Below, piece by piece: positions 7,437 to 17,481 of a stretch of DNA of 17,481 bases (the stretch's first letter is position 1; every line of letters starts with the position of its first letter). Source of the DNA: a virus (Duplodnaviria; Heunggongvirae; Uroviricota; Caudoviricetes); the IMG/VR virus record IMGVR_UViG_2693429555_000018. One strand, given 5' to 3'. The position numbers were made by a program, and so were the translations under genes. Under the pieces are notes generated by a model. That model did no database searches. It saw nothing but the letters and a program-made list of their open reading frames with translations, and was not told the DNA's origin.

Positions 7437-7461
7437 GCTTCTTCATGTGCGTAGAAAAGGC

Positions 7462-7572
7462 GTTGGTTCAGTTGGTTCAGTTGGTTCAATTTGTAAAGAG
7501 TATTGTTTTATAAGAATTTTATTCTTTTTATTGAACCAACACTGAACCAACAGCACGGTATTTTGAACCAAC
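7462..7572. repeat. iteron cluster, candidate origin of replication (ori-like)
   Basis: Three tandem GTTGGTTCA at 7462-7470, 7471-7479 and 7480-7488; a ~43-bp AT-rich spacer; then three inverted copies TGAACCAAC at 7532-7540, 7543-7551 and 7564-7572. Lies directly downstream of the primase stop (7436), the usual ori position in PICI-like elements. Confidence 0.6.
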
Positions 7573-7622
7573 ACAATGTGACTGAATTGATGCGCACAAC
7601 ACCTGGCTGGCATCAGAGAGTG

Positions 7623-8198: not shown

Positions 8199-8660
8199 AT
8201 GGAACTAAAATTTATTGATAACCCTGTGCGATTACAGGCCTTTCTCAACGAGCCTGGCAATACCGAAAATATTGTTGAGCCGGGGCACACGTACTACATC
8301 AAGCCTGATGCGGTATATCTCGGTATCTACGAAGGATTGGTGCTGGCTGGCGTTCATGAAGTGCGTAACTTCTGGCATAGCATTGTTGAATGCCATGCGG
8401 TGTACGACCCCGGATTCCGTGGTGAATATGCACTGCAAGGGCATCGATTATTCTGCAAATGGCTTCTCGAAAACTCACCATTCCTTAACAGCATTACCAT
8501 GGTTCCTGACACAACGAAATACGGACGGGCAATTATCAGTTTGCTTGGCGCTACCCGTGTTGGTCACCTTGATGATGCTTATATCAGATGTGGTAAACCC
8601 GTCGGCGTAACGCTTTATCAGTTAACTCGGCAACAATATAAGGAATTCAGCGAGTGTTAA
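8199..8660 (+). CDS. phage protein; by position possibly a P22 gp14-like protein
   Basis: 153 aa, protein-like ORF directly upstream of the three coupled putative ejection-protein genes. Assignment rests only on size and synteny with the P22 order 14-7-20-16. Confidence 0.5.
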   Translation: MELKFIDNPVRLQAFLNEPGNTENIVEPGHTYYIKPDAVYLGIYEGLVLAGVHEVRNFWHSIVECHAVYDPGFRGEYALQGHRLFCKWLLENSPFLNSITMVPDTTKYGRAIISLLGATRVGHLDDAYIRCGKPVGVTLYQLTRQQYKEFSEC

Positions 8661-9331
8661 TTACCCATATAGCTCATAAACATCTCAATCGTGCCGTATA
8701 CGAAAAAGGCGGTGATGGTGGTGCCTCTAAAGCTCAGGCGAAGGCCCAGCAGCAGGCAATTGATTTGCAGCGCGAGCAGTGGAATACGGTGATGAATAAT
8801 CTCAAGCCGTATGCAGAAGTCGGATTGCCTGCTTTACAACAACTACAAGGACTGATGACTCTGGAAGGGCAGAATAAAGCCGCGAATGATTTCTTTGGTT
8901 CTGGTTTATATAAAACACAGGCAGATCAGGCCCGTTATCAGAACCTTGTCTCAGCAGAAGCTACCGGGGGGCTTGGCTCAACAGCTACCAGTAACCAGTT
9001 ATCTTCCATTGCGCCCATGCTTTATAACAATTGGCTTAGTGGGCAAATGCAAAATTATGGAAACCTGCTAAATGTCGGGATGAATGCGGCATCAGGGCAG
9101 GCAACAGCAGGGCAAAACTACGCCAATAATACCGGACAACTCTTGCAGGGGCTTGGCGCTATTCGTGCAGGTCAGGCGCAGCAGCCATCCAGTCTTGCGC
9201 GTGGTATTGGTGGGGCGGCATCAGGCGCTTTAGCGGGTGCGCAACTTGGTTCCGTTGTTCCGGGTATAGGTAATGTCGCCGGGGCTATTGGTGGTGGGCT
9301 TATTGGTCTTGTTGGGGGGCTTGGATTCTAA
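8654..9331 (+). CDS. putative phage DNA-ejection (transfer) protein, P22 gp7-like
   Basis: 225 aa; GTG start at 8654 overlapping the upstream stop; Gly-rich hydrophobic C-terminus (GIGGAASGALAGAQLG...GGLIGLVGGLGF). Size and position fit gp7 (~229 aa) in the P22 order 14-7-20-16. Synteny inference, not an alignment. Confidence 0.55.
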   Translation: MLITHIAHKHLNRAVYEKGGDGGASKAQAKAQQQAIDLQREQWNTVMNNLKPYAEVGLPALQQLQGLMTLEGQNKAANDFFGSGLYKTQADQARYQNLVSAEATGGLGSTATSNQLSSIAPMLYNNWLSGQMQNYGNLLNVGMNAASGQATAGQNYANNTGQLLQGLGAIRAGQAQQPSSLARGIGGAASGALAGAQLGSVVPGIGNVAGAIGGGLIGLVGGLGF

Positions 9332-10752
9332 TGGCGACATGGCAACTTGGCGGGCTGCCTAGCATGGTACCGCAAAATGATAATGCTCCTCGTTCTTCCG
9401 TTCCTCAGCCTGTGCAGTTTCAGCAGCAGCCAAACGTAGGTTTAATGGCGCTACAGGGGCTAAGAGGCGTTGCTGAGATTAATCAGCAGGCACGTCAACA
9501 ACAGCGTAAAGCAGAGTTTCAGAAAGCATATGCCGGGGCTTTTGAGTCTGGAGACAGAAACAAAATGCGCAGTCTTATTTCTGAGTATCCAGAAGAATTT
9601 GAAAGCGTTCAGAAAGGGATGGGCTTTATTGATGACGACCAGAGAAATTCTATTGGTCATCTTGCGACTAGTGCTCAAATCGCATCTTCGCTCGGAACTG
9701 GGGCATTTGGAAAATTCATAGCAGATAACGAAGATGAAATGCGTCGCTTGGGAATTTCTCCTGAGTCTGTTGCCGAAATGCATGTTAATGATCCACAGGA
9801 ATTCCAGCGGCTTGCTGGTAGTATGGCACTGTTTTCTCTCGGTCATGAGAAGTACTTCGATATCAAAGATCGAATGGAAGGTCGGGATATTGAGCGTGGC
9901 AAGTTGGCAGAGACAATCCGCAGCAATCAGGCTGGAGAGGCGCTTCAGGCGAGAGGGCAGGATATTAGCCGAGCAAATGCGTTAACGTCAGCATATGCAC
10001 CAACAGCCGCAATGCAGAATTACAATCAGTACGCGCAAATGTTAAAGGCGGATCCAGAGGGGGCAGCGGCATTTGCGGCAGCGGCTGGAATTAATACAAA
10101 CGCCAAAAAATTAATGAGTGTTAGGGAAAACGATGATGGCACTGTCACAAAATACTACACAGACGGAAGTGAAGAGCAGGGAAAACTAAACCAGCCAATA
10201 TCTGGAGATGGGTTTCGTCCAATAGCTTTGCCAACAGCCCAAAAGATCATGGAAAAGTCGCCAGAAGGGGCTAAAAAAGCTGCTGGATTTGCATACAGAG
10301 TTAGGGATGCTCTTGATTCAATGGATACACTGAAAGGCCAGCTTAGCCCACAGCGAGTGGCGATCATTAATAATGCTTTGGGTAATGGGACGCTGGCTAA
10401 CTTAACGCTCAGCCCAACAGAGCAGCAATACGTTGTTAATGCTAATGACGCAATAATGGCAATACTCCGTCAGGAAACAGGGGCAGCTATCGTACCTGCT
10501 GAAATGTCAAAATATTATCAAATGTATTTCCCTCAGCCTGGCGACTCCACAAAAACCATTGATACCAAGCGCCGGAAGATGGAAAACCAGTTCAATTCGC
10601 TGAAAGCTGCTTCTGGTCGAGCTTATGATGCTTTGCGTGTTATTTCAGCAGTTGACAGAGGAACTTCTTCTTCGTCGCAGACATTGCCGCAATCTGAGCA
10701 GGTATCACAGCCAGCAGCCAGCAGTAATTTTTCTTCACTATGGGGTGATTAA
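9331..10752 (+). CDS. putative phage DNA-ejection protein, P22 gp20-like
   Basis: 473 aa; TAATG overlap with the upstream gene. Size matches P22 gp20 (~471 aa) and the position matches. Confidence 0.6.
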   Translation: MATWQLGGLPSMVPQNDNAPRSSVPQPVQFQQQPNVGLMALQGLRGVAEINQQARQQQRKAEFQKAYAGAFESGDRNKMRSLISEYPEEFESVQKGMGFIDDDQRNSIGHLATSAQIASSLGTGAFGKFIADNEDEMRRLGISPESVAEMHVNDPQEFQRLAGSMALFSLGHEKYFDIKDRMEGRDIERGKLAETIRSNQAGEALQARGQDISRANALTSAYAPTAAMQNYNQYAQMLKADPEGAAAFAAAAGINTNAKKLMSVRENDDGTVTKYYTDGSEEQGKLNQPISGDGFRPIALPTAQKIMEKSPEGAKKAAGFAYRVRDALDSMDTLKGQLSPQRVAIINNALGNGTLANLTLSPTEQQYVVNANDAIMAILRQETGAAIVPAEMSKYYQMYFPQPGDSTKTIDTKRRKMENQFNSLKAASGRAYDALRVISAVDRGTSSSSQTLPQSEQVSQPAASSNFSSLWGD

Positions 10753-12857
10753 TGGCTAAAGCATGGAAAGATGTTATCGCCTCTCCACAGTATCAGGCGT
10801 TAGCACCAGAACAAAAAGTGCAGGCTCAGGAGCAATACTTCAATGAAGTCGTGGCCCCGCAAGCCGGAGAAAGTGTAGAGCAGGCTAAGCAGGCTTTTTA
10901 TGCTGCCTATCCACTACCATCTACGAATGAAATAGACCGCTCCCAATCAGCAACTCAAAATATTCAACATACATCATCTGATAATTCTCTTGCGTCAGGG
11001 TATGCAAAGTTAGCTACTCAGCAAAGAGAGGGGCTTGAGCGTTCAGCAGAACAGGGAGCCAGTCTTGGGACTGCGATGCGCGATGCTATAACAGGCGAAA
11101 GCCGAATGACTCCAGAGATGGAGAGACTGCAAAATGTCGCCTCTGCCCCAGAATTGAACTCACTAAGCATGGATGCCCTGAAGGCTGGATGGTCTCAACT
11201 TTTCGGCTCTGACGCGTCTCAGGAAAAGATTCTTCAGGGCATGGGGGCGACATTAAGGCAGGATGAGAAGGGGAATACTATCGTTTCTCTGCCATCAGGT
11301 GATTATGCCCTGAACAAGCCGGGTTTATCACCGCAAGACCTGACTTCGTTTCTGGCTAATGCGCTGGCGTTTACACCAGCGGGCAGGGCTGGAACGGTGC
11401 TTGGTGCCATAGGAAAATCAGCAGCTACAGATTTAGCACTACAGGGAGCCACCAGCAAGGCTGGTGGAGAAGATATTGATCCGTTACAAACGGTAATTTC
11501 TGCTGGCATTGGTGGTATTGGTAAGGGGCTGGAAAATACAGCGAGTGCGGTTTCGAGGGCTGTTCGTGGTGATATGTCGCCTGAAGCAAAGGCTGCTGTC
11601 GACTTTGCATCGGAAAGAAATCTGCCGTTAATGACCAGTGACATGCTGAAAGATAAAACCTTTATGCAGAGTCAGGCTCAGACATTAGGCGAAAGAGTTC
11701 CTTTTTTTGGAACCGGTAAGAATCGGCTGAATCAACAACAAGCACGAGAAAATTTAGTCAGAACATTTAGCGATGGTCTGGGTGGCATTTCTGATAAACA
11801 GCTTTATGAATCTGCGACTAAAGGGCAACAAAAATTCATTGAGGCAGCAGGAAAGCGATATAACCGCATAATTGACGCTATGGGGGATACCCCTGTCGAT
11901 CTCTCAAACACGGTAAAAACTATCGACAATCAGATTGCCGTGTTAAGCCGCCCTGGCAAATCTCAGGATAGAGCCGCGGTAAAAGTCTTGCAGCAATTTA
12001 AAGACGATATCACCAGCGGACCAAATGACCTGCGTCTGGCGAGGGAAAACAGAACCGATCTTCGAAAGCGATTTATAGCGTCATCTGACACTGTTGATAA
12101 AGATACGCTCCAGAAAGCCAGCGATATTATCTACAAGGCATATACGGCGGATATGAAAAAAGCCGTAGCCAAAAATCTTGGAGCAGACGAAGCCATTAAT
12201 ATGGCAAGGGTTGATCGCTCATGGTCTAAATTCAATGACATGATGGGAAGAACGCGCGTTCAAAAGGCAATAGCCAGCGGCAAGGCCACGCCTGAGGATG
12301 TAACAAAACTCGTTTTTAGCCAAAGCCCATCAGAACGTTCTCAGCTTTACAGGCTTCTGGATGACAATGGTAGGCAAAACGCACGAGCAGCTATAGTTCA
12401 GAATGCTGTAGATAAGGCGACTGATCCGTCTGGAAATATCAGTGTTGAGAAGTTTATTAATGCGTTACACCGGAACAGGAAGCAATCAGCAACTTTCTTT
12501 AAAGGCGTACATGGAAAGGAACTGGACGGCGTTATTAAATACCTCAACGATACAAGACACGCGGCAAAAGCGAACGTTCAAAACTTAAATGGTCAGCAGC
12601 TTTATGGATTGTTAGTTGGTGGTGGCATCATAAACGCAGCAGTATTGGCGGGGATGCTAAAAACGGCTGCGTTTGTTGTTCCTGCTGCTGGTGCCGTAGG
12701 CGGAGCAGCGAAGGCATACGAAAGCCCTGTTATACGAAATGCCTTGTTACGTCTGGCAAATACGCCAAAAGGTAGCACAGCATATGACAGAGCGATCAGT
12801 ACGGTCACACAATCGCTCACCAGAGTCGCACAGGCATCACAAAAAGAAGCTCAATAA
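10752..12857 (+). CDS. putative phage DNA-ejection protein, P22 gp16-like
   Basis: 701 aa; TAATG overlap with the upstream gene; hydrophobic, Gly/Ala-rich C-terminal region (GLLVGGGIINAAVLAGMLKTAAFVVPAAGAVGGAAKAY). Third gene of the coupled trio, in the gp16 position; followed by a terminator. Confidence 0.6.
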   Translation: MAKAWKDVIASPQYQALAPEQKVQAQEQYFNEVVAPQAGESVEQAKQAFYAAYPLPSTNEIDRSQSATQNIQHTSSDNSLASGYAKLATQQREGLERSAEQGASLGTAMRDAITGESRMTPEMERLQNVASAPELNSLSMDALKAGWSQLFGSDASQEKILQGMGATLRQDEKGNTIVSLPSGDYALNKPGLSPQDLTSFLANALAFTPAGRAGTVLGAIGKSAATDLALQGATSKAGGEDIDPLQTVISAGIGGIGKGLENTASAVSRAVRGDMSPEAKAAVDFASERNLPLMTSDMLKDKTFMQSQAQTLGERVPFFGTGKNRLNQQQARENLVRTFSDGLGGISDKQLYESATKGQQKFIEAAGKRYNRIIDAMGDTPVDLSNTVKTIDNQIAVLSRPGKSQDRAAVKVLQQFKDDITSGPNDLRLARENRTDLRKRFIASSDTVDKDTLQKASDIIYKAYTADMKKAVAKNLGADEAINMARVDRSWSKFNDMMGRTRVQKAIASGKATPEDVTKLVFSQSPSERSQLYRLLDDNGRQNARAAIVQNAVDKATDPSGNISVEKFINALHRNRKQSATFFKGVHGKELDGVIKYLNDTRHAAKANVQNLNGQQLYGLLVGGGIINAAVLAGMLKTAAFVVPAAGAVGGAAKAYESPVIRNALLRLANTPKGSTAYDRAISTVTQSLTRVAQASQKEAQ

Positions 12858-12860
12858 CTG

Positions 12861-12885
12861 GTTAGCCACGGATGGCTAATTTTTG
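12861..12885 (+). terminator. rho-independent terminator after the gp16-like gene
   Basis: Stem TTAGCCA (12862-12868) / TGGCTAA (12873-12879), loop CGGA, then TTTTTG (12880-12885). Overlaps the 3' end of the convergent membrane-protein gene. Confidence 0.45.
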
Positions 12886-13352
12886 TTCTTTGCTCTCATC
12901 CACAGGTAAAGAAGGGCAAGAACAAGACAAAAAACAGAGAATAGATGACCTACCTCATATGGTGCGCCAAAAAAATTAGCTATTGATACGGGCAAAAAAG
13001 CTGAAGCGATCAAAATTGAAAGGCAAAAAATAAGCCCAGTAATATAGTTTATTAAATTCTTAAATGAGAAATGTTTTGCTTGATTTACGGTCTTAGCGAA
13101 TGATCGCTTAACGACGGATAAAAGCAAATAGATGGCGACAGTTGCTAATGCCCCTTTCCACCAGTCTGGATATAGTTTTGCGACAATCAGACCAAGGAAA
13201 ACCATGATGACAGCCTGAGCATTCACACCAACCCTCCCTTTAGCGTTGTTTAGAATGGCAATCATCATATATCCAAGACATGGCATTTGGTACATAGCTT
13301 GGGTCGGGATTTCAAATCCGATCCCCGTTGATGGGGCCGTTACAGTACGCAC
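12876..13352 (-). CDS. small integral membrane protein in the P22 SieA position (candidate superinfection-exclusion protein)
   Basis: Minus-strand ORF convergent with the gp16-like gene, as sieA is in P22. Strongly hydrophobic, multi-helix product (…MMIAILNNAKGRVGVNAQAVIMVFLGLIVAKLYPDWW…LLYLWMRAKNKN). Start uncertain: 13352 is GTG; in-frame ATGs at 13295, 13286 and 13268 are alternatives. Confidence 0.5.
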   Translation of the reverse strand: MRTVTAPSTGIGFEIPTQAMYQMPCLGYMMIAILNNAKGRVGVNAQAVIMVFLGLIVAKLYPDWWKGALATVAIYLLLSVVKRSFAKTVNQAKHFSFKNLINYITGLIFCLSILIASAFLPVSIANFFGAPYEVGHLFSVFCLVLALLYLWMRAKNKN

Positions 13353-14259
13353 ATATCCGCTTTATGTGAAACAGGAAGATTTTTCTGATATCACTGCCAC
13401 AGCAAAACACCAATTTCGAGACAAGTACGCGTGCGAGGGGTATCAGTTGCAAAAAATTTTGCAACTACGTCCGACCAGTATGCACACGATGGCGGGGGGA
13501 TACCATAAAACTGTTCTCTACATGAGACAGAGTGGTGGTGATGTGTTGATTATCGGCGTATATGCGCACAGGACGCGCTATGACGATGTTTTATGCGGGT
13601 ACACCAATCACATGTATCTGGTGTGATAAATCGCGTTACATGACCTCTTATGTTGTGCTGGTGGTTATCACGACGTTCTGAATCTGGCCTTTGCCTGGTA
13701 TTTTGCGACAAGTACGCGCGCGTAGCATCGAAATAATCGGATGGCGTATACTGCTGGTAATATGAAGACCGATAGCATTAACCGAAAGGAGAAAGACTTC
13801 TCGATAACGGCAAGGGGGCTGAATTGCGAGGCGAGATTAAGCAACTGTCTTGAACGTAAAAATCATGGAGCAACATGATGGTACGATTCATTCCATTCTT
13901 CGTTCTTTCTGAGCATTGCGTTCAGGCTTAGTCAAAATTAGTGTTGCGAGCGGACCTATTAGTAATTGTTGGTGCGATGCGCCTGTTATGGATTGTTATG
14001 GTTGTGGCAGGCCTGATTAATATCCAGTATGACCACCAGCTATGAGAGGCCACCTCAGTGGTTCGCAGTTGCAGGTTTGCACTCAGGTTCGCAGGGTTTT
14101 GGCTACTTTCACGTGCGAACCTGCAGAATTGCAAAGGACAACTAAGTCCTCTGGCCAACTCCCGGTTTATGAGCGACACAGTCCGCCTGGCGCATCGTTT
14201 TCGTCGAGTGCGCCCATCAGCTTGTCCATGGACTATCCACCACTCGATATTAAAGCTAA

Positions 14260-14445
14260 TCATTGGTTGCCAGCCCGCGAATCAAGTTTGTTCTGGATCC
14301 AAGCTTCAACCTCCTCAAGCGACCATCTAGCTGATCTACCAATTTTAACTGGCTGTGGAAACGTGCCCGTCTTAACCCATGAGTAGATTGCCGTTTTCTT
14401 GAAGCCCGTTCTGAGCATGACTTCGCTTAATTTGATAAGGCGCAT
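14260..14445 (-). CDS. alpA: AlpA-family regulator (second copy, opposite orientation)
   Basis: 61 aa; MRLIKLSEVMLRTGFKKTAIYSWVKTGTFPQPVKIGRSARWSLEEVEAWI is a textbook AlpA-family pattern. AGGAG-type SD upstream on the minus strand. Confidence 0.75.
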   Translation of the reverse strand: MRLIKLSEVMLRTGFKKTAIYSWVKTGTFPQPVKIGRSARWSLEEVEAWIQNKLDSRAGNQ

Positions 14446-14529: not shown

Positions 14530-14697
14530 CCAAAACGCTGTTTACCAAAAAAGTTACCACCGGAACAGGACATTTTGAGCTGTAACTTAACACATAGCAT
14601 ATGGAGTTCACGCATAGACTTCACGCACAACGGCTCCGGCCAGTGAAGAATCACCCTGGCTGGCAATATAATGCCGATCACCATCAGAGGGGAATCC

Positions 14698-14889
14698 ATG
14701 ACACCACGAGAAATCGAGCTGCTGACCATCGCCAAGCTGGAGCATGACGGCCACCAGCTCAGCCCGGCAGAACTGCGGGAATTAAGGCGCCAGCTGGCAG
14801 AGGGCCCTGTAATAGCCAGGCGGCACCGCGAAATGATGACCAGCCACGCATATCGCTGGAGCAAACCAGCGCCGCTCCGTGCGCGGTGA
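14698..14889 (+). CDS. small hypothetical protein (63 aa)
   Basis: ATG 14698 preceded by AGAGGGG (5-nt spacing); MTPREIELLTIAKLEHDGHQLSPAELRELRRQLAEG... Divergent from alpA (-). The track start at 14671 lacks an RBS. Confidence 0.4.
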   Translation: MTPREIELLTIAKLEHDGHQLSPAELRELRRQLAEGPVIARRHREMMTSHAYRWSKPAPLRAR

Positions 14890-14963
14890 GCAGCACCTAA
14901 CCAGCACTAGACAAGCCCTGTGCTGGTGGATGTCCCTCATAATTAGCGGTTTTTAAACGGCGT

Positions 14964-15084
14964 GTTGGTTCACGGCCTCTTTTTGTTGGTTCAAAAATGG
15001 GGTGTGTTGGTTCACATTTTGCGAATAATCCTTTTAAAAACAATACTCTTTACAAATTGAACCAACTGAACCAACTGAACCAAC
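14964..15084. repeat. second iteron cluster, an inverted copy of the 7462-7572 ori-like region
   Basis: GTTGGTTCA at 14964-14972, 14985-14993 and 15006-15014; AT-rich spacer; three tandem TGAACCAAC at 15058-15066, 15067-15075 and 15076-15084. Bases 15037-15084 are the exact reverse complement of 7462-7510 (about 48 bp). Confidence 0.6.
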
Positions 15085-15120
15085 ACCTTTTTGCTTATCT
15101 ATATAGTCTGAGAGGCAGAA

Positions 15121-15408
15121 ATGATAAGGGACAGGAAAGCTGAAGAGCTGGAGTTAAAAGGGCTATGCCGGAGAGCTGCCACACGATGGGCAGAAGTCAT
15201 GACGCTGGCAGATGGCGATAAAGAACGTGAACATGCAGCAAACAGACGCTCTGAATATATCCGTAGGGCGGCACGCCCACCAGCAACTACAGACAGATTC
15301 GGAGACTTAAGACAGGCAGTTAAGCGAACGCATTCAGCTCTTGGTATGGATGAGGAAGCGAGAGGGTACTTCAGGCGTTATCGCGATAAAGATTGCCAGC
15401 TACGATAA
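15121..15408 (+). CDS. hypothetical basic protein (95 aa)
   Basis: ATG 15121 preceded by GAGAGG (15110-15115); Arg-rich product. No recognised motif. Confidence 0.5.
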   Translation: MIRDRKAEELELKGLCRRAATRWAEVMTLADGDKEREHAANRRSEYIRRAARPPATTDRFGDLRQAVKRTHSALGMDEEARGYFRRYRDKDCQLR

Positions 15409-15577
15409 AGCAAAGGAGGTGTCTTACTACAATGACCAAGCAAAACTGTCGTTGCTTTCGCATAGCATCAGCTAAAAGATCAAGACACCCAACATCGCAT
15501 TAATAAGTATAATCAATTTGCTTCTTTCAACATTTGCTATAGAGTTTTTGAACCTTAATGGTTTATGAGCATCTATA

Positions 15578-16342
15578 ATGACTACAACGGTATATGATCG
15601 TGTTAACGCCTTAGTAGCGACCGACTCTAGGTGGTCTGTTGATCTTAGCCCACATGGCTACGATGGTCATATCCTGTATATTGACGACACCGGCTTCGGT
15701 AAGCTAGCTCCACGAAATGATTTTGTTATGCTTTTAGCCGGTGATGGTCTTTTGATTCAGTTATGGAAGCATTGGTGGCGAGGAGACCTATCTCAACAAG
15801 AACCACCAGTTGTTTTACCTACTGGTCAATCGGTAAATTTACATATTGTGAAAAAATCAACTAATGAAGTGATTTTTGATAAAGGTCAAAAATTAGTTGT
15901 AAAAAATAACGAAACGGAAGAACTGTTCGCTGTCTTTACAGGCTCAGGATGCGGTGCTGCTGCGCAAAACTGGATGTATAGCCATTGCGCAAGATCAGCA
16001 ATTGAAGAATCTAAAAAGCTTGACCCATACACTGGCGGCACTGTACGTTTTTTAGACTTCAGGACTAACGCATCATTAGTAGAAGACTCTGTTTCAACCA
16101 TTAGCGAAGTAAACGAAGCTCTATTGCAGAGGGGGCTGATTATGGATACCAAAAACCCACATTCACCACACGTTTCTATCAGTGCACAAGAAGTTGCTGA
16201 AGTTCGTCAAATGCTGGTTAGTGGTTCAATTACCCCATGTGCACCAGTAGGCCAAAGAACCCAAGATTGGGATGACAACTCCAAATTGCGTTTAGCAAAT
16301 GCTATTCAGCGTATTCGTGAAGAAGAAGCACAAATGCGATAA
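15578..16342 (+). CDS. Ntn-hydrolase-like protein with HslV / proteasome-beta-type motifs
   Basis: 254 aa, visibly AT-richer than its neighbours. N-terminus MTTTV… (Thr after the initiator Met, as in HslV MTTIV… and archaeal beta TTTVG…). ALVATDSRWS resembles the proteasome-beta GVIVAADSRAT block (Asp17 region). LFAVFTGSGCGAAAQ resembles HslV LIAIGSGGPYAQAA. An ~80-aa C-terminal extension is present. Followed by a strong terminator. Confidence 0.6.
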   Translation: MTTTVYDRVNALVATDSRWSVDLSPHGYDGHILYIDDTGFGKLAPRNDFVMLLAGDGLLIQLWKHWWRGDLSQQEPPVVLPTGQSVNLHIVKKSTNEVIFDKGQKLVVKNNETEELFAVFTGSGCGAAAQNWMYSHCARSAIEESKKLDPYTGGTVRFLDFRTNASLVEDSVSTISEVNEALLQRGLIMDTKNPHSPHVSISAQEVAEVRQMLVSGSITPCAPVGQRTQDWDDNSKLRLANAIQRIREEEAQMR

Positions 16343-16360
16343 ATGGAATAAGTAAGCCTA

Positions 16361-16391
16361 AAAAGCTGCCTATCATACAGGCAGCTTTTTA
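16361..16391 (+). terminator. rho-independent terminator of the Ntn-hydrolase-like gene
   Basis: Stem AGCTGCCT (16364-16371) / AGGCAGCT (16379-16386), then TTTT (16387-16390), 19 bp after the stop codon. Confidence 0.6.
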
Positions 16392-16694
16392 GTCCGTTTC
16401 CCCATTCTATGTAAATACACTTCCTAAAAATAGCGATTAACTTACCTCTCACAATCAATTTCACGAGCAATACGCGTGCGCAGTACAACAAGCCTGAACA
16501 GGGTTACACACCTCGATCGTGAGCGATGTAGACAATGGCTTTTGACCAAAGCACCAGAAAAAACCGTGTACATAAGGGTGTACATAATCAAAAAAATCAT
16601 TAGAAAGAAATCAGCCACAATGCGGCATTGAAGCCAATACTCTACAAACAGATTCAGACTCGTAACACTAATTCTTACTTTTCAGCCTTCACAA

Positions 16695-16728
16695 ATGCCG
16701 CCCACTCAAACAGAGCGGCATTTTTCTT
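16695..16728 (+). terminator. terminator-like hairpin in the intergenic region upstream of dinD
   Basis: Stem ATGCCGC (16695-16701) / GCGGCAT (16715-16721), 13-nt loop, then TTTTCTT. No ORF ends immediately upstream, so what it terminates is unclear. Confidence 0.35.
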
Positions 16729-16815
16729 CCCCGCAACTTCAATTCTGTTTTGCGTGCCTGCTCCAGATTTTGCGATGTTTTTTTGCCCAGCACACTGAGA
16801 ACGTGAGATACTCAC

Positions 16816-16835
16816 AACTGTATATAAATACAGTT
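16816..16835. promoter_or_regulatory. LexA (SOS) box of dinD
   Basis: AACTGTATATAAATACAGTT, with the CTGT-N8-ACAG core at 16818-16833, about 44 bp upstream of the dinD start and overlapping a TATAAAT -10-like element. Matches the canonical LexA consensus and, as I recall, the published dinD SOS box. Confidence 0.85.
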
Positions 16836-16878
16836 ACAGATTTACTTTCTTTGCAATCGATATCACATGGAGTGGGCA

Positions 16879-17481
16879 ATGAACGAACATCATCAACCTT
16901 TTGAAGAGATAAAACTGATTAATGCAAACGGAGCAGAACAATGGTCAGCAAGACAACTTGGGAAACTACTGGGTTATTCAGAGTATCGTCACTTTATACC
17001 TGTATTAACGCGCGCCAAAGAGGCCTGTGAGAACAGTGGTCACACAATTGATGACCATTTCGAGGAGATCCTCGATATGGTCAAAATTGGCTCAAATGCC
17101 AAAAGAGCATTAAAAGACATCGTACTCTCCCGCTATGCCTGTTACCTGGTATTACAAAACGGCGACCCCGCGAAACCGGTCATTGCGGCAGGGCAGACTT
17201 ATTTTGCTATCCAGACCCGACGGCAGGAGCTTGCTGACGATGAAGCATTTAAGCAACTTCGTGAAGACGAAAAGCGTCTGTTTCTGAGAAATGAGTTGAA
17301 AGAACATAACAAACAATTGGTTGAGGCAGCACAGCAAGCTAATACCACACACTTTGACGTGGGTAGCAAGGTGAGGCAAACCATTCAGGAACTTGGCGGA
17401 ACCATGCCTGAGGAGTTGCCGACCCCGCAGGTCAGCATCAAGCAGTTGGAAAACAGTGTAAAAATTACAGAGAAGAAATAG
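16879..17481 (+). CDS. dinD: DNA-damage-inducible protein D (DinD)
   Basis: ORF ending with TAG at 17479-17481. Start most likely ATG 16879 (MNEHHQPFEEIKLIN…, GGAG 6 nt upstream); the in-frame ATG at 16867 is an alternative. Identification rests on the LexA box plus my recollection of the E. coli DinD sequence; not searched. Confidence 0.8.
   Translation: MNEHHQPFEEIKLINANGAEQWSARQLGKLLGYSEYRHFIPVLTRAKEACENSGHTIDDHFEEILDMVKIGSNAKRALKDIVLSRYACYLVLQNGDPAKPVIAAGQTYFAIQTRRQELADDEAFKQLREDEKRLFLRNELKEHNKQLVEAAQQANTTHFDVGSKVRQTIQELGGTMPEELPTPQVSIKQLENSVKITEKK

Follow-up and report, generated by a model that had tools for sequence, protein, structure and literature searches.

A mobile single-gene cassette for a proteasome-type Ntn hydrolase at the end of a phage satellite island, and its possible role in phage conflict

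What does the gene for a lone proteasome-like protease do at the very end of a phage satellite? The question is raised by IMG/VR record IMGVR_UViG_2693429555_000018 (Caudoviricetes), whose 17,481 nucleotides are referred to below as the window. Towards its right-hand end, the window holds a gene for a 254-aa 'hypothetical protein', which a first-pass annotation, made from the letters alone, had read as a self-contained cargo cassette encoding an HslV- or proteasome-beta-like N-terminal nucleophile (Ntn) hydrolase. Here, we report that the gene very probably encodes an active Ntn hydrolase of the proteasome family that is carried as a mobile cassette, and we weigh which role such an enzyme might play for its carriers.

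A single-gene cassette for a predicted threonine protease

When the window was compared by blastn with the island of strain 4750 (L069), in which the corresponding slot is empty, homology ended at position 15399 and restarted at 16456; in place of the intervening segment, L069 has 283 unrelated bases. This segment (Table 1) is therefore a unit of insertion or deletion within a variable 3' slot. It is a discrete single-gene cassette with its own terminator, which moves as a unit from the upstream block to the terminator. The terminator hairpin has a 14-bp stem and a folding free energy (dG) of -24.7 kcal/mol (z = -6.2 against dinucleotide shuffles) and was also recovered in the terminator scan; a hairpin with a T-run at most 90 nt past the stop codon is present in 41 of 46 non-redundant homologous loci. 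On the other side of the gene, about 110 nt upstream of the ATG, including two -10-like elements, are conserved in enterobacterial copies from unrelated prophage contexts (alignment A7, 14 upstream regions). The GC content of the gene (0.422) lies below that of perC (0.507), of the dinD part (0.459) and of the whole window (0.477); the upstream spacer is at 0.355, and the downstream spacer, at 0.411, is as AT-rich as the gene itself. The open reading frame (ORF), its strong terminator, its low GC content relative to both neighbours and the single-gene cargo layout, all proposed in the first-pass annotation, were thereby borne out, as was the placement at the edge of a satellite island, described further below.

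Two further features of the upstream block were looked at. In most enterobacterial copies, a near-palindrome, CGATA-N5-TATCG, lies over the first -10-like hexamer and may be an operator for some regulator; in the window it is degenerate (TTAATAAGTATAATCAAT). A small hairpin around the ribosome-binding site, compensatory-looking by eye in alignment A7, was dropped because RNAalifold gave no consensus structure for it; nor did this program find a conserved RNA structure elsewhere in the upstream block in the same alignment.

The predicted structure of the protein (AlphaFold2, AF2; predicted local distance difference test, pLDDT, of 94.4) has the four-layer alpha-beta-beta-alpha fold of Ntn hydrolases, with a single helix (residues 57-68) where the proteasome has helices H1 and H2. 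The core is followed by a C-terminal domain of 89 aa, estimated at about 80 in the earlier reading, which carries conserved RG-x-IM and S-A-P-x-G motifs and matches no known fold. A profile built from 145 members found beta5 and beta8 subunits as its only significant matches in the PDB (E from 5e-4), and searches of the PDB with the single sequence or with a 35-member profile returned chance matches only. PHROG 1040, named 'peptidase HslV family', matches residues 1-165 with an E value of 2.8e-13 and recognises 35 of 35 family members (best E 1.4e-18), while no Pfam or NCBIfam family was matched at E up to 1. The relationship to HslV and the proteasome beta subunits, initially proposed from motifs, is thus upheld by the structure model, the profile match and PHROG 1040.

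Conservation of the putative active site was assessed over 145 representatives that differ by at least 50% and share 22-54% identity with the query. The invariant positions are K42, G55, G122, G124 and D149; at T2, T3, D16 and R18, conservation reaches at least 90% (T2 is invariant in alignment A1 and reaches at least 90% in A4). Indeed, the residues aligned with yeast beta5, namely D16, R18, K42, G55, S123, D149 and T152-G153, are all either invariant or conserved in at least 90%, with Thr in place of Ser169. The A-x-DSR block that had first drawn attention to the protein occupies residues 14-18, and the GSG-x-AAA-type block, in full F-T-GSG-C-G-AAA, residues 120-129; the suggested check of the catalytic Thr, Asp and Lys thus found all three invariant or nearly so, and the GSG loop as well. 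Nearly all of the 60-odd loci start with M-T-T-[TNV], apart from two that start with V-T-T and one N-terminally truncated tblastn match. Given that Thr stands directly behind Met1, removal of the methionine would expose the nucleophile without any propeptide. Such removal is expected from the specificity of methionine aminopeptidase and from HslV. Taken together, sequence and model are best explained by a threonine protease of the proteasome-beta/HslV superfamily (MEROPS T1-type Ntn hydrolases) that is cytoplasmic and catalytically competent and whose predicted architecture matches that of the PPH-related family RPC.

RPC is one of the 22 new families of proteasome homologues described by Fuchs, Alva and Lupas in 2021 (PMC8665760). 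In that paper, PPH is a family of about 140 aa that occurs in phages and their hosts, whereas RPC, which is related to PPH, lacks H2, has a C-terminal domain matching no known structure and is found in Proteobacteria only; the features of both are considered possibly incompatible with classical rings. Phage context is given there for PPH and AAH; the paper names no function for RPC, and the sections consulted mention no mobile-element slots for it. The window protein resembles RPC, as portrayed there, in its Group-I proteasome-like fold, its core without helix H2, its additional C-terminal domain without structural match, its lack of a propeptide, its restriction to Proteobacteria and its sequence link to phage proteasome homologues (PHROG 1040). 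By these published descriptors, it is a probable member of RPC; the published representative, WP_140207863, was absent from the members of the 10 clusters looked up. Since the architecture fits RPC and PHROG 1040, the fold is not new. The family is already catalogued computationally, with relatives annotated as 'HslV family peptidase' by phage annotators, so that the initial impression of an undescribed family holds only in part. No function is assigned to PPH or RPC in the literature searched.

The protein is clearly distinct from HslV (ClpQ) itself. HslV is a compact protein of about 175 aa, contains helices H1 and H2, has no extra domain and is encoded in the core genome, whereas the window protein has 254 aa, one helix at this place and 89 aa of extra domain, lacks H2 and any match to the Pfam or NCBIfam models of HslV and the proteasome, and belongs to a family found on mobile elements. 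An alignment of the family profile with one E. coli HslV sequence (hhalign) was uninformative, with a non-significant probability of 3.5%. Moreover, HslU is not adjacent: no ATPase lies beside the gene in the window, in agreement with the first-pass annotation, and none was found in 46 other contexts, although cross-talk with the chromosomal HslU is conceivable. With the 20S beta5-type subunits, BPH and Anbu, the protein shares 9-21% identity, and it differs from them in its helix content, its added domain and the lack of an alpha-subunit partner.

Table 1. Positions of the cassette, its gene and the neighbouring features in the window, and residues of the protein aligned with yeast beta5.
Feature	Position	Strand	Basis or remark
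Variable cassette segment	15400..16455	+	blastn of window vs empty-slot island L069
Upstream non-coding region, GC 0.355	15409..15577	+	-10-like TATAAT 15508-15513, TAGAGT 15540-15545
Coding sequence, 254 aa, = WP_000214207.1 'hypothetical protein'	15578..16342	+	ORF call; start MTTTVYDRVNALVATDSRWS
Predicted Ntn-hydrolase core, residues 1-165	15578..16072	+	key residues Thr2, Asp16, Arg18, Lys42, Gly55, Gly122-Ser123-Gly124, Asp149, Thr152-Gly153-Gly154
C-terminal domain, residues 166-254	16073..16339	+	helix, short hairpin, helix, long terminal helix
Intrinsic (bidirectional-type) terminator hairpin	16358..16392	+	A-run before, T-run after
PerC-family regulator, neighbouring accessory gene outside the cassette	15121..15408	+	Pfam PerC 1.2e-28
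attR core GTGTACATAAGGGTGTACATAAT	16566..16588	.	repeat at attL beside integrase
T2 = yeast beta5 Thr1	residue 2		predicted nucleophile after Met removal
D16 = yeast beta5 Asp17	residue 16		hidden Markov model (HMM) alignment
R18 = yeast beta5 Arg19	residue 18		HMM alignment
K42 = yeast beta5 Lys33	residue 42		HMM alignment
A54-G55 = yeast beta5 Ala46-Gly47	residues 54-55		HMM alignment
G122-S123-G124 = yeast beta5 Gly128-Ser129-Gly130	residues 122-124		HMM alignment
D149 = yeast beta5 Asp166	residue 149		HMM alignment
T152-G153-G154 = yeast beta5 Ser169-Gly170-Gly171	residues 152-154		HMM alignment

The carrier island and its variable 3' end

The attachment (att) core GTGTACATA-RR-GGTGTACATAAT lies past the gene, and its second copy next to the integrase was recognised from a shared 12-mer and from an alignment of the attL and attR sides in L001. 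This places the protease gene about 225 bp from attR, as the last gene of the element. In ECONIH5 and other strains, the island sits between yicC and dinD. It starts with an integrase, an AlpA-type helix-turn-helix (HTH) protein, an AntA/B antirepressor, Ash, an Icd-like protein and a TOPRIM-DUF927 primase, and continues with DUF2824/phrog_651, P22-type ejection proteins (gp7, a gp20-like translocase and a 701-aa DNA-transfer protein) and PerC. Judged by this gene set, which is the same as that of EcCIMP1, the island is an EcCIMP1-like phage-inducible chromosomal island (PICI); EcCIMP1 is an experimentally verified PICI satellite that is mobilised by the P22-like phage Kapi1 (PMC11773190). EcCIMP1 differs in its integration site and, as described in the same paper, ends with PerC and does not carry the protease gene.

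Among 5,426 complete E. coli genomes, 43 carry the 983-bp region at 99% identity or more (100% in the top matches), that is, as one near-identical allele, compared with 301 genomes for the perC block and 361 for the island core, as represented by a primase of at least 99% identity. PerC, the upstream 95-aa protein whose co-occurrence with the protease had been proposed as a check, was rejected as a functional partner: only 1 of the 41 contexts, that of the window island type, has it as the upstream neighbour, and the perC block (301 genomes) is far more frequent than the cassette (43).

In strain U13A (L068), the slot after perC is occupied by a gene for a Doc-family toxin (153 aa) and a 337-aa gene, and on account of this other content the 3' slot of the PICI is a true swap site. 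In the U13A segment (L068 6862-8345, equivalent to window 15400-16866), the toxin and the 337-aa protein are encoded on the opposite strand and dinD is absent; the 337-aa protein weakly matches a regulator, and the two genes may form another uncharacterised module. The ends of PICIs, both 5' and 3', are documented immune hotspots (PMC11364771). The window gene resembles the immune genes portrayed there in that it is the last cargo before attR, in a slot that varies by strain and is empty (L069), filled by the protease or filled by the Doc module (L068); it differs from them in having no PADLOC match.

The island has several other features of its own. A 55-nt inverted repeat of GTTGGTTCA iterons (98% complementary; 7455-7509 and 15037-15091, and also 7543-7576 and 14981-15014) flanks the 7.5-kb ejection-protein block; its arms closely follow the primase gene and closely precede perC, respectively. 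This arrangement resembles the two iteron clusters (ori and crr) bound by the P4 primase-helicase, and could represent a pair of replication origins of the island or shared operator sites. The P22-type virion-entry genes at 8199-12857 encode DUF2824/phrog_651, a gp7-like ejection protein, a gp20-like injectosome translocase and the 701-aa DNA-transfer/transglycosylase protein. This run is the same module as in the Kapi1-mobilised EcCIMP1, and it is unusual for a satellite to bring its own ejection proteins. It is followed by an ORF for a hydrophobic 158-aa protein (12876-13352, minus strand) that matched no family, about 1 kb of short overlapping ORFs (13400-14250) and a second AlpA/excisionase-like HTH gene (14260-14445, minus strand). 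In ECONIH5, an IS66 element (tnpA/tnpB/tnpC; L001 16881-19193) lies about 0.5 kb upstream of perC, near position 14650 of the window, from which it is absent.

Homologues and their positions in other mobile elements

At 90% identity, the family falls into 80 clusters; at no more than 50% identity, it has 549 representatives, 183 of them below an E value of 1e-30. Every named source belongs to the gamma-, beta- or alpha-proteobacteria. Nearly all members are full length (235-265 aa), every one is named 'hypothetical', and some truncated copies occur within the 90% cluster of the query. Thirty-six IMG/VR contigs carry the family, and in many cases the contig resembles a prophage region excised from a sequenced genome; in 72,556 plasmids, tblastn with the window protein found no match.

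Our survey of the neighbours of the gene covered 41-46 non-redundant loci, which came from public assemblies, from IMG/VR and from genomes in GTDB. The protease gene was always solo, and among 149 flanking proteins from 46 contexts no recurrent partner or ATPase family was found on either side. The most frequent upstream neighbour (13 of 41 loci) was a CI-type repressor (HTH plus Peptidase_S24) on the same strand. These repressors are often 10-25% identical to each other, while the protease genes next to them are 35-53% identical to the query. In annotated examples, cro and O/P lie leftwards, and cI, the protease gene, kil and recombination genes follow rightwards. The position after cI is, on the lambda map, the place of rexAB. 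As with lambda RexAB, the gene in these 13 loci is co-oriented with and directly downstream of the repressor, ahead of the N/kil early-left genes, in a moron-like layout that ends in a terminator; it differs in being one protease gene instead of two genes and has no sequence or fold relation to them. RexA is a sensor and RexB a membrane protein. PADLOC matches to 'RmrA/capH/capP' among the neighbours most probably reflect the repressor-type proteins with HTH and M78/S24 peptidase domains that Pfam finds there.

The remaining positions are diverse, and the downstream neighbours are heterogeneous. In a P2-like prophage of Marinomonas, the gene lies between the gpA/Ogr/methylase block and the portal gene Q, a position that corresponds to the old/tin hotspot on the P2 map. 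A filamentous prophage of Vibrio cholerae (L005/L006) carries a 262-aa homologue (L005 8001-8789) after Zot, as the terminal cargo of a Rep_trans ... Zot element; accessory genes at such terminal positions of inoviruses include toxins. In an E. coli lambdoid prophage, the gene lies past the tail-fibre genes, and a Pseudomonas prophage carries it next to the lysis cassette. In islands of Aeromonas caviae (L002-L004 1-7485), the homologue lies about 500 bp downstream of the gene for a polyvalent protein of 2,400-2,850 aa (InPase, MuF_C, LPD38). A 66-aa ORF separates the two in these islands, a context unlike all others, which could point to a role in entry or establishment.

Immunity, element biology or host physiology

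Our tentative reading, to which we assign a probability of about 0.45, is that the gene has a role in immunity or exclusion, as a partner-less threonine protease of the resident element in phage-phage or phage-host conflict. The resident element would express the protease while the cell is uninfected, with the copies behind cI transcribed together with or beside the repressor, and the PICI copy transcribed from its own upstream block or by read-through from perC. The enzyme would act alone, without an unfoldase, and the C-terminal domain could serve as a regulatory or target-recognition module that gates or targets the active site. The Ntn core would be the effector, with either a phage protein, from an incoming or a competing phage, or, in an abortive response, a host protein as its substrate; cleavage of this substrate would protect the element and its host. 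With rather more reserve, we propose that the family could be a new class of single-gene immunity or exclusion effectors, in which a proteasome-type threonine protease is combined with a new C-terminal sensor or regulatory domain and spreads among rexAB slots, P2-type hotspots, PICI ends and filamentous prophages.

The anti-phage idea, which we infer, is now backed by the positions that the gene occupies in other elements. Two published observations raise its prior further. One is the role of PICI ends as immune hotspots (PMC11364771); the other comes from a study that treats the hotspots of P2 and P4, in which 6 of 8 randomly chosen uncharacterised genes from P4 defence loci protected against phages (PMC13586616).

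Several points weigh against an immunity role. No PADLOC family (PADLOC-DB v2) was matched at E up to 1, and the literature searched gives no link of this family, or of HslV-like, proteasome-like or Ntn hydrolases, to phage defence. An accessory-slot position is equally typical of virulence, toxin-antitoxin and other conversion genes. When three divergent members were compared by tblastn with 50,697 deposited phage genomes, no match was found, which is odd for the cargo of inducible prophages; the explanation is either that free phages are rarely isolated from the carrier prophages or that many of these prophages are defective. Furthermore, a consensus scan of 14800-17000 found no full sigma-70 pair of -35 and -10 elements, which leaves the promoter a candidate. 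The TATAAT noted in the first-pass annotation is indeed present at 15508-15513; with the result of the scan and the poor -35 partner of the TATAAT, a private promoter is no more than plausible. Given that the same region contains no terminator between perC and the protease gene, read-through from perC is possible. Lastly, HslV and the 20S subunits show no activity in their free form; they depend on ring assembly or on an activator.

Alternatively, the protease might serve the element's own cycle by degrading a host defence or regulatory protein, or a protein of the helper phage, during induction, transfer or establishment, in the sense of counter-defence or helper manipulation. Such polyvalent proteins probably counter host defences, and the Aeromonas copies lie just after one of them. 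The window island, with its P22-type ejection proteins, invests in entry and establishment functions, and distant proteasome-like relatives occur in virulent and jumbo phages. We nevertheless consider this explanation unlikely, since the commonest position of the gene, co-oriented and directly after CI, is the place of genes expressed in the lysogen and not of lytic or entry genes. In addition, the gene is not part of an early or late operon but is framed by a conserved upstream block and a terminator of its own, and the tblastn search recovered no full-length member from the sequenced phage genomes.

Somewhat less likely again is a lysogenic-conversion gene that acts on host physiology, such as proteostasis, stress survival or virulence regulation, and has no part in phage conflict. 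HslV-family proteases are established players in heat-shock and SOS-related turnover, and the integration site next to dinD, coincidental as it is, is SOS-related. PerC, the neighbour in the window, is a conversion-type regulator that affects LEE expression (locus of enterocyte effacement; PMC11773190). A rare and patchy gene (43 of 5,426 E. coli genomes) that is confined to the slots of mobile elements fits conflict genes better, however, and no consistent link to virulence genes was seen across its contexts.

The Ntn site could also be used in a non-proteolytic manner, as in a connectase-like, sequence-specific transpeptidase or ligase or in an amidase acting on a small, for example signalling, molecule. 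This possibility, which overlaps with the other readings, appears improbable to us, given that the full catalytic set of proteasome beta subunits is retained, including the equivalents of Asp166 and Ser169/Gly170, and that both the structure and the profile find their best matches in beta5-type subunits, which are proteolytically active, and not in connectase. Finally, a decaying remnant, pseudo-enzyme or chance ORF, as the universal 'hypothetical protein' label and the truncated copies in the 90% cluster might suggest, is effectively refuted by the invariant catalytic residues in 549 diverse representatives of nearly always about 250 aa, by the very confident structure model and by the conserved expression signals.

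To our knowledge, no function is known for proteasome homologues of bacteria other than HslV, Anbu, BPH and connectase, and the PPH/RPC branch is known from sequence analysis alone. What is new here is the boundary of the cassette, the residue-level support for its active site and the hotspot pattern across elements, including the rexAB-equivalent and the variable PICI 3' slots. Through these findings, a proteasome homologue that had not been characterised becomes a candidate phage-conflict effector, about 1 kb in size, that can be tested directly. If the gene is indeed an immunity gene, it would introduce a new enzymatic principle into phage defence, namely attack by a threonine protease without an unfoldase. 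In that case, the RPC/PPH branch would also gain its first biological role, and a defence system based on an Ntn threonine protease would be known for the first time.

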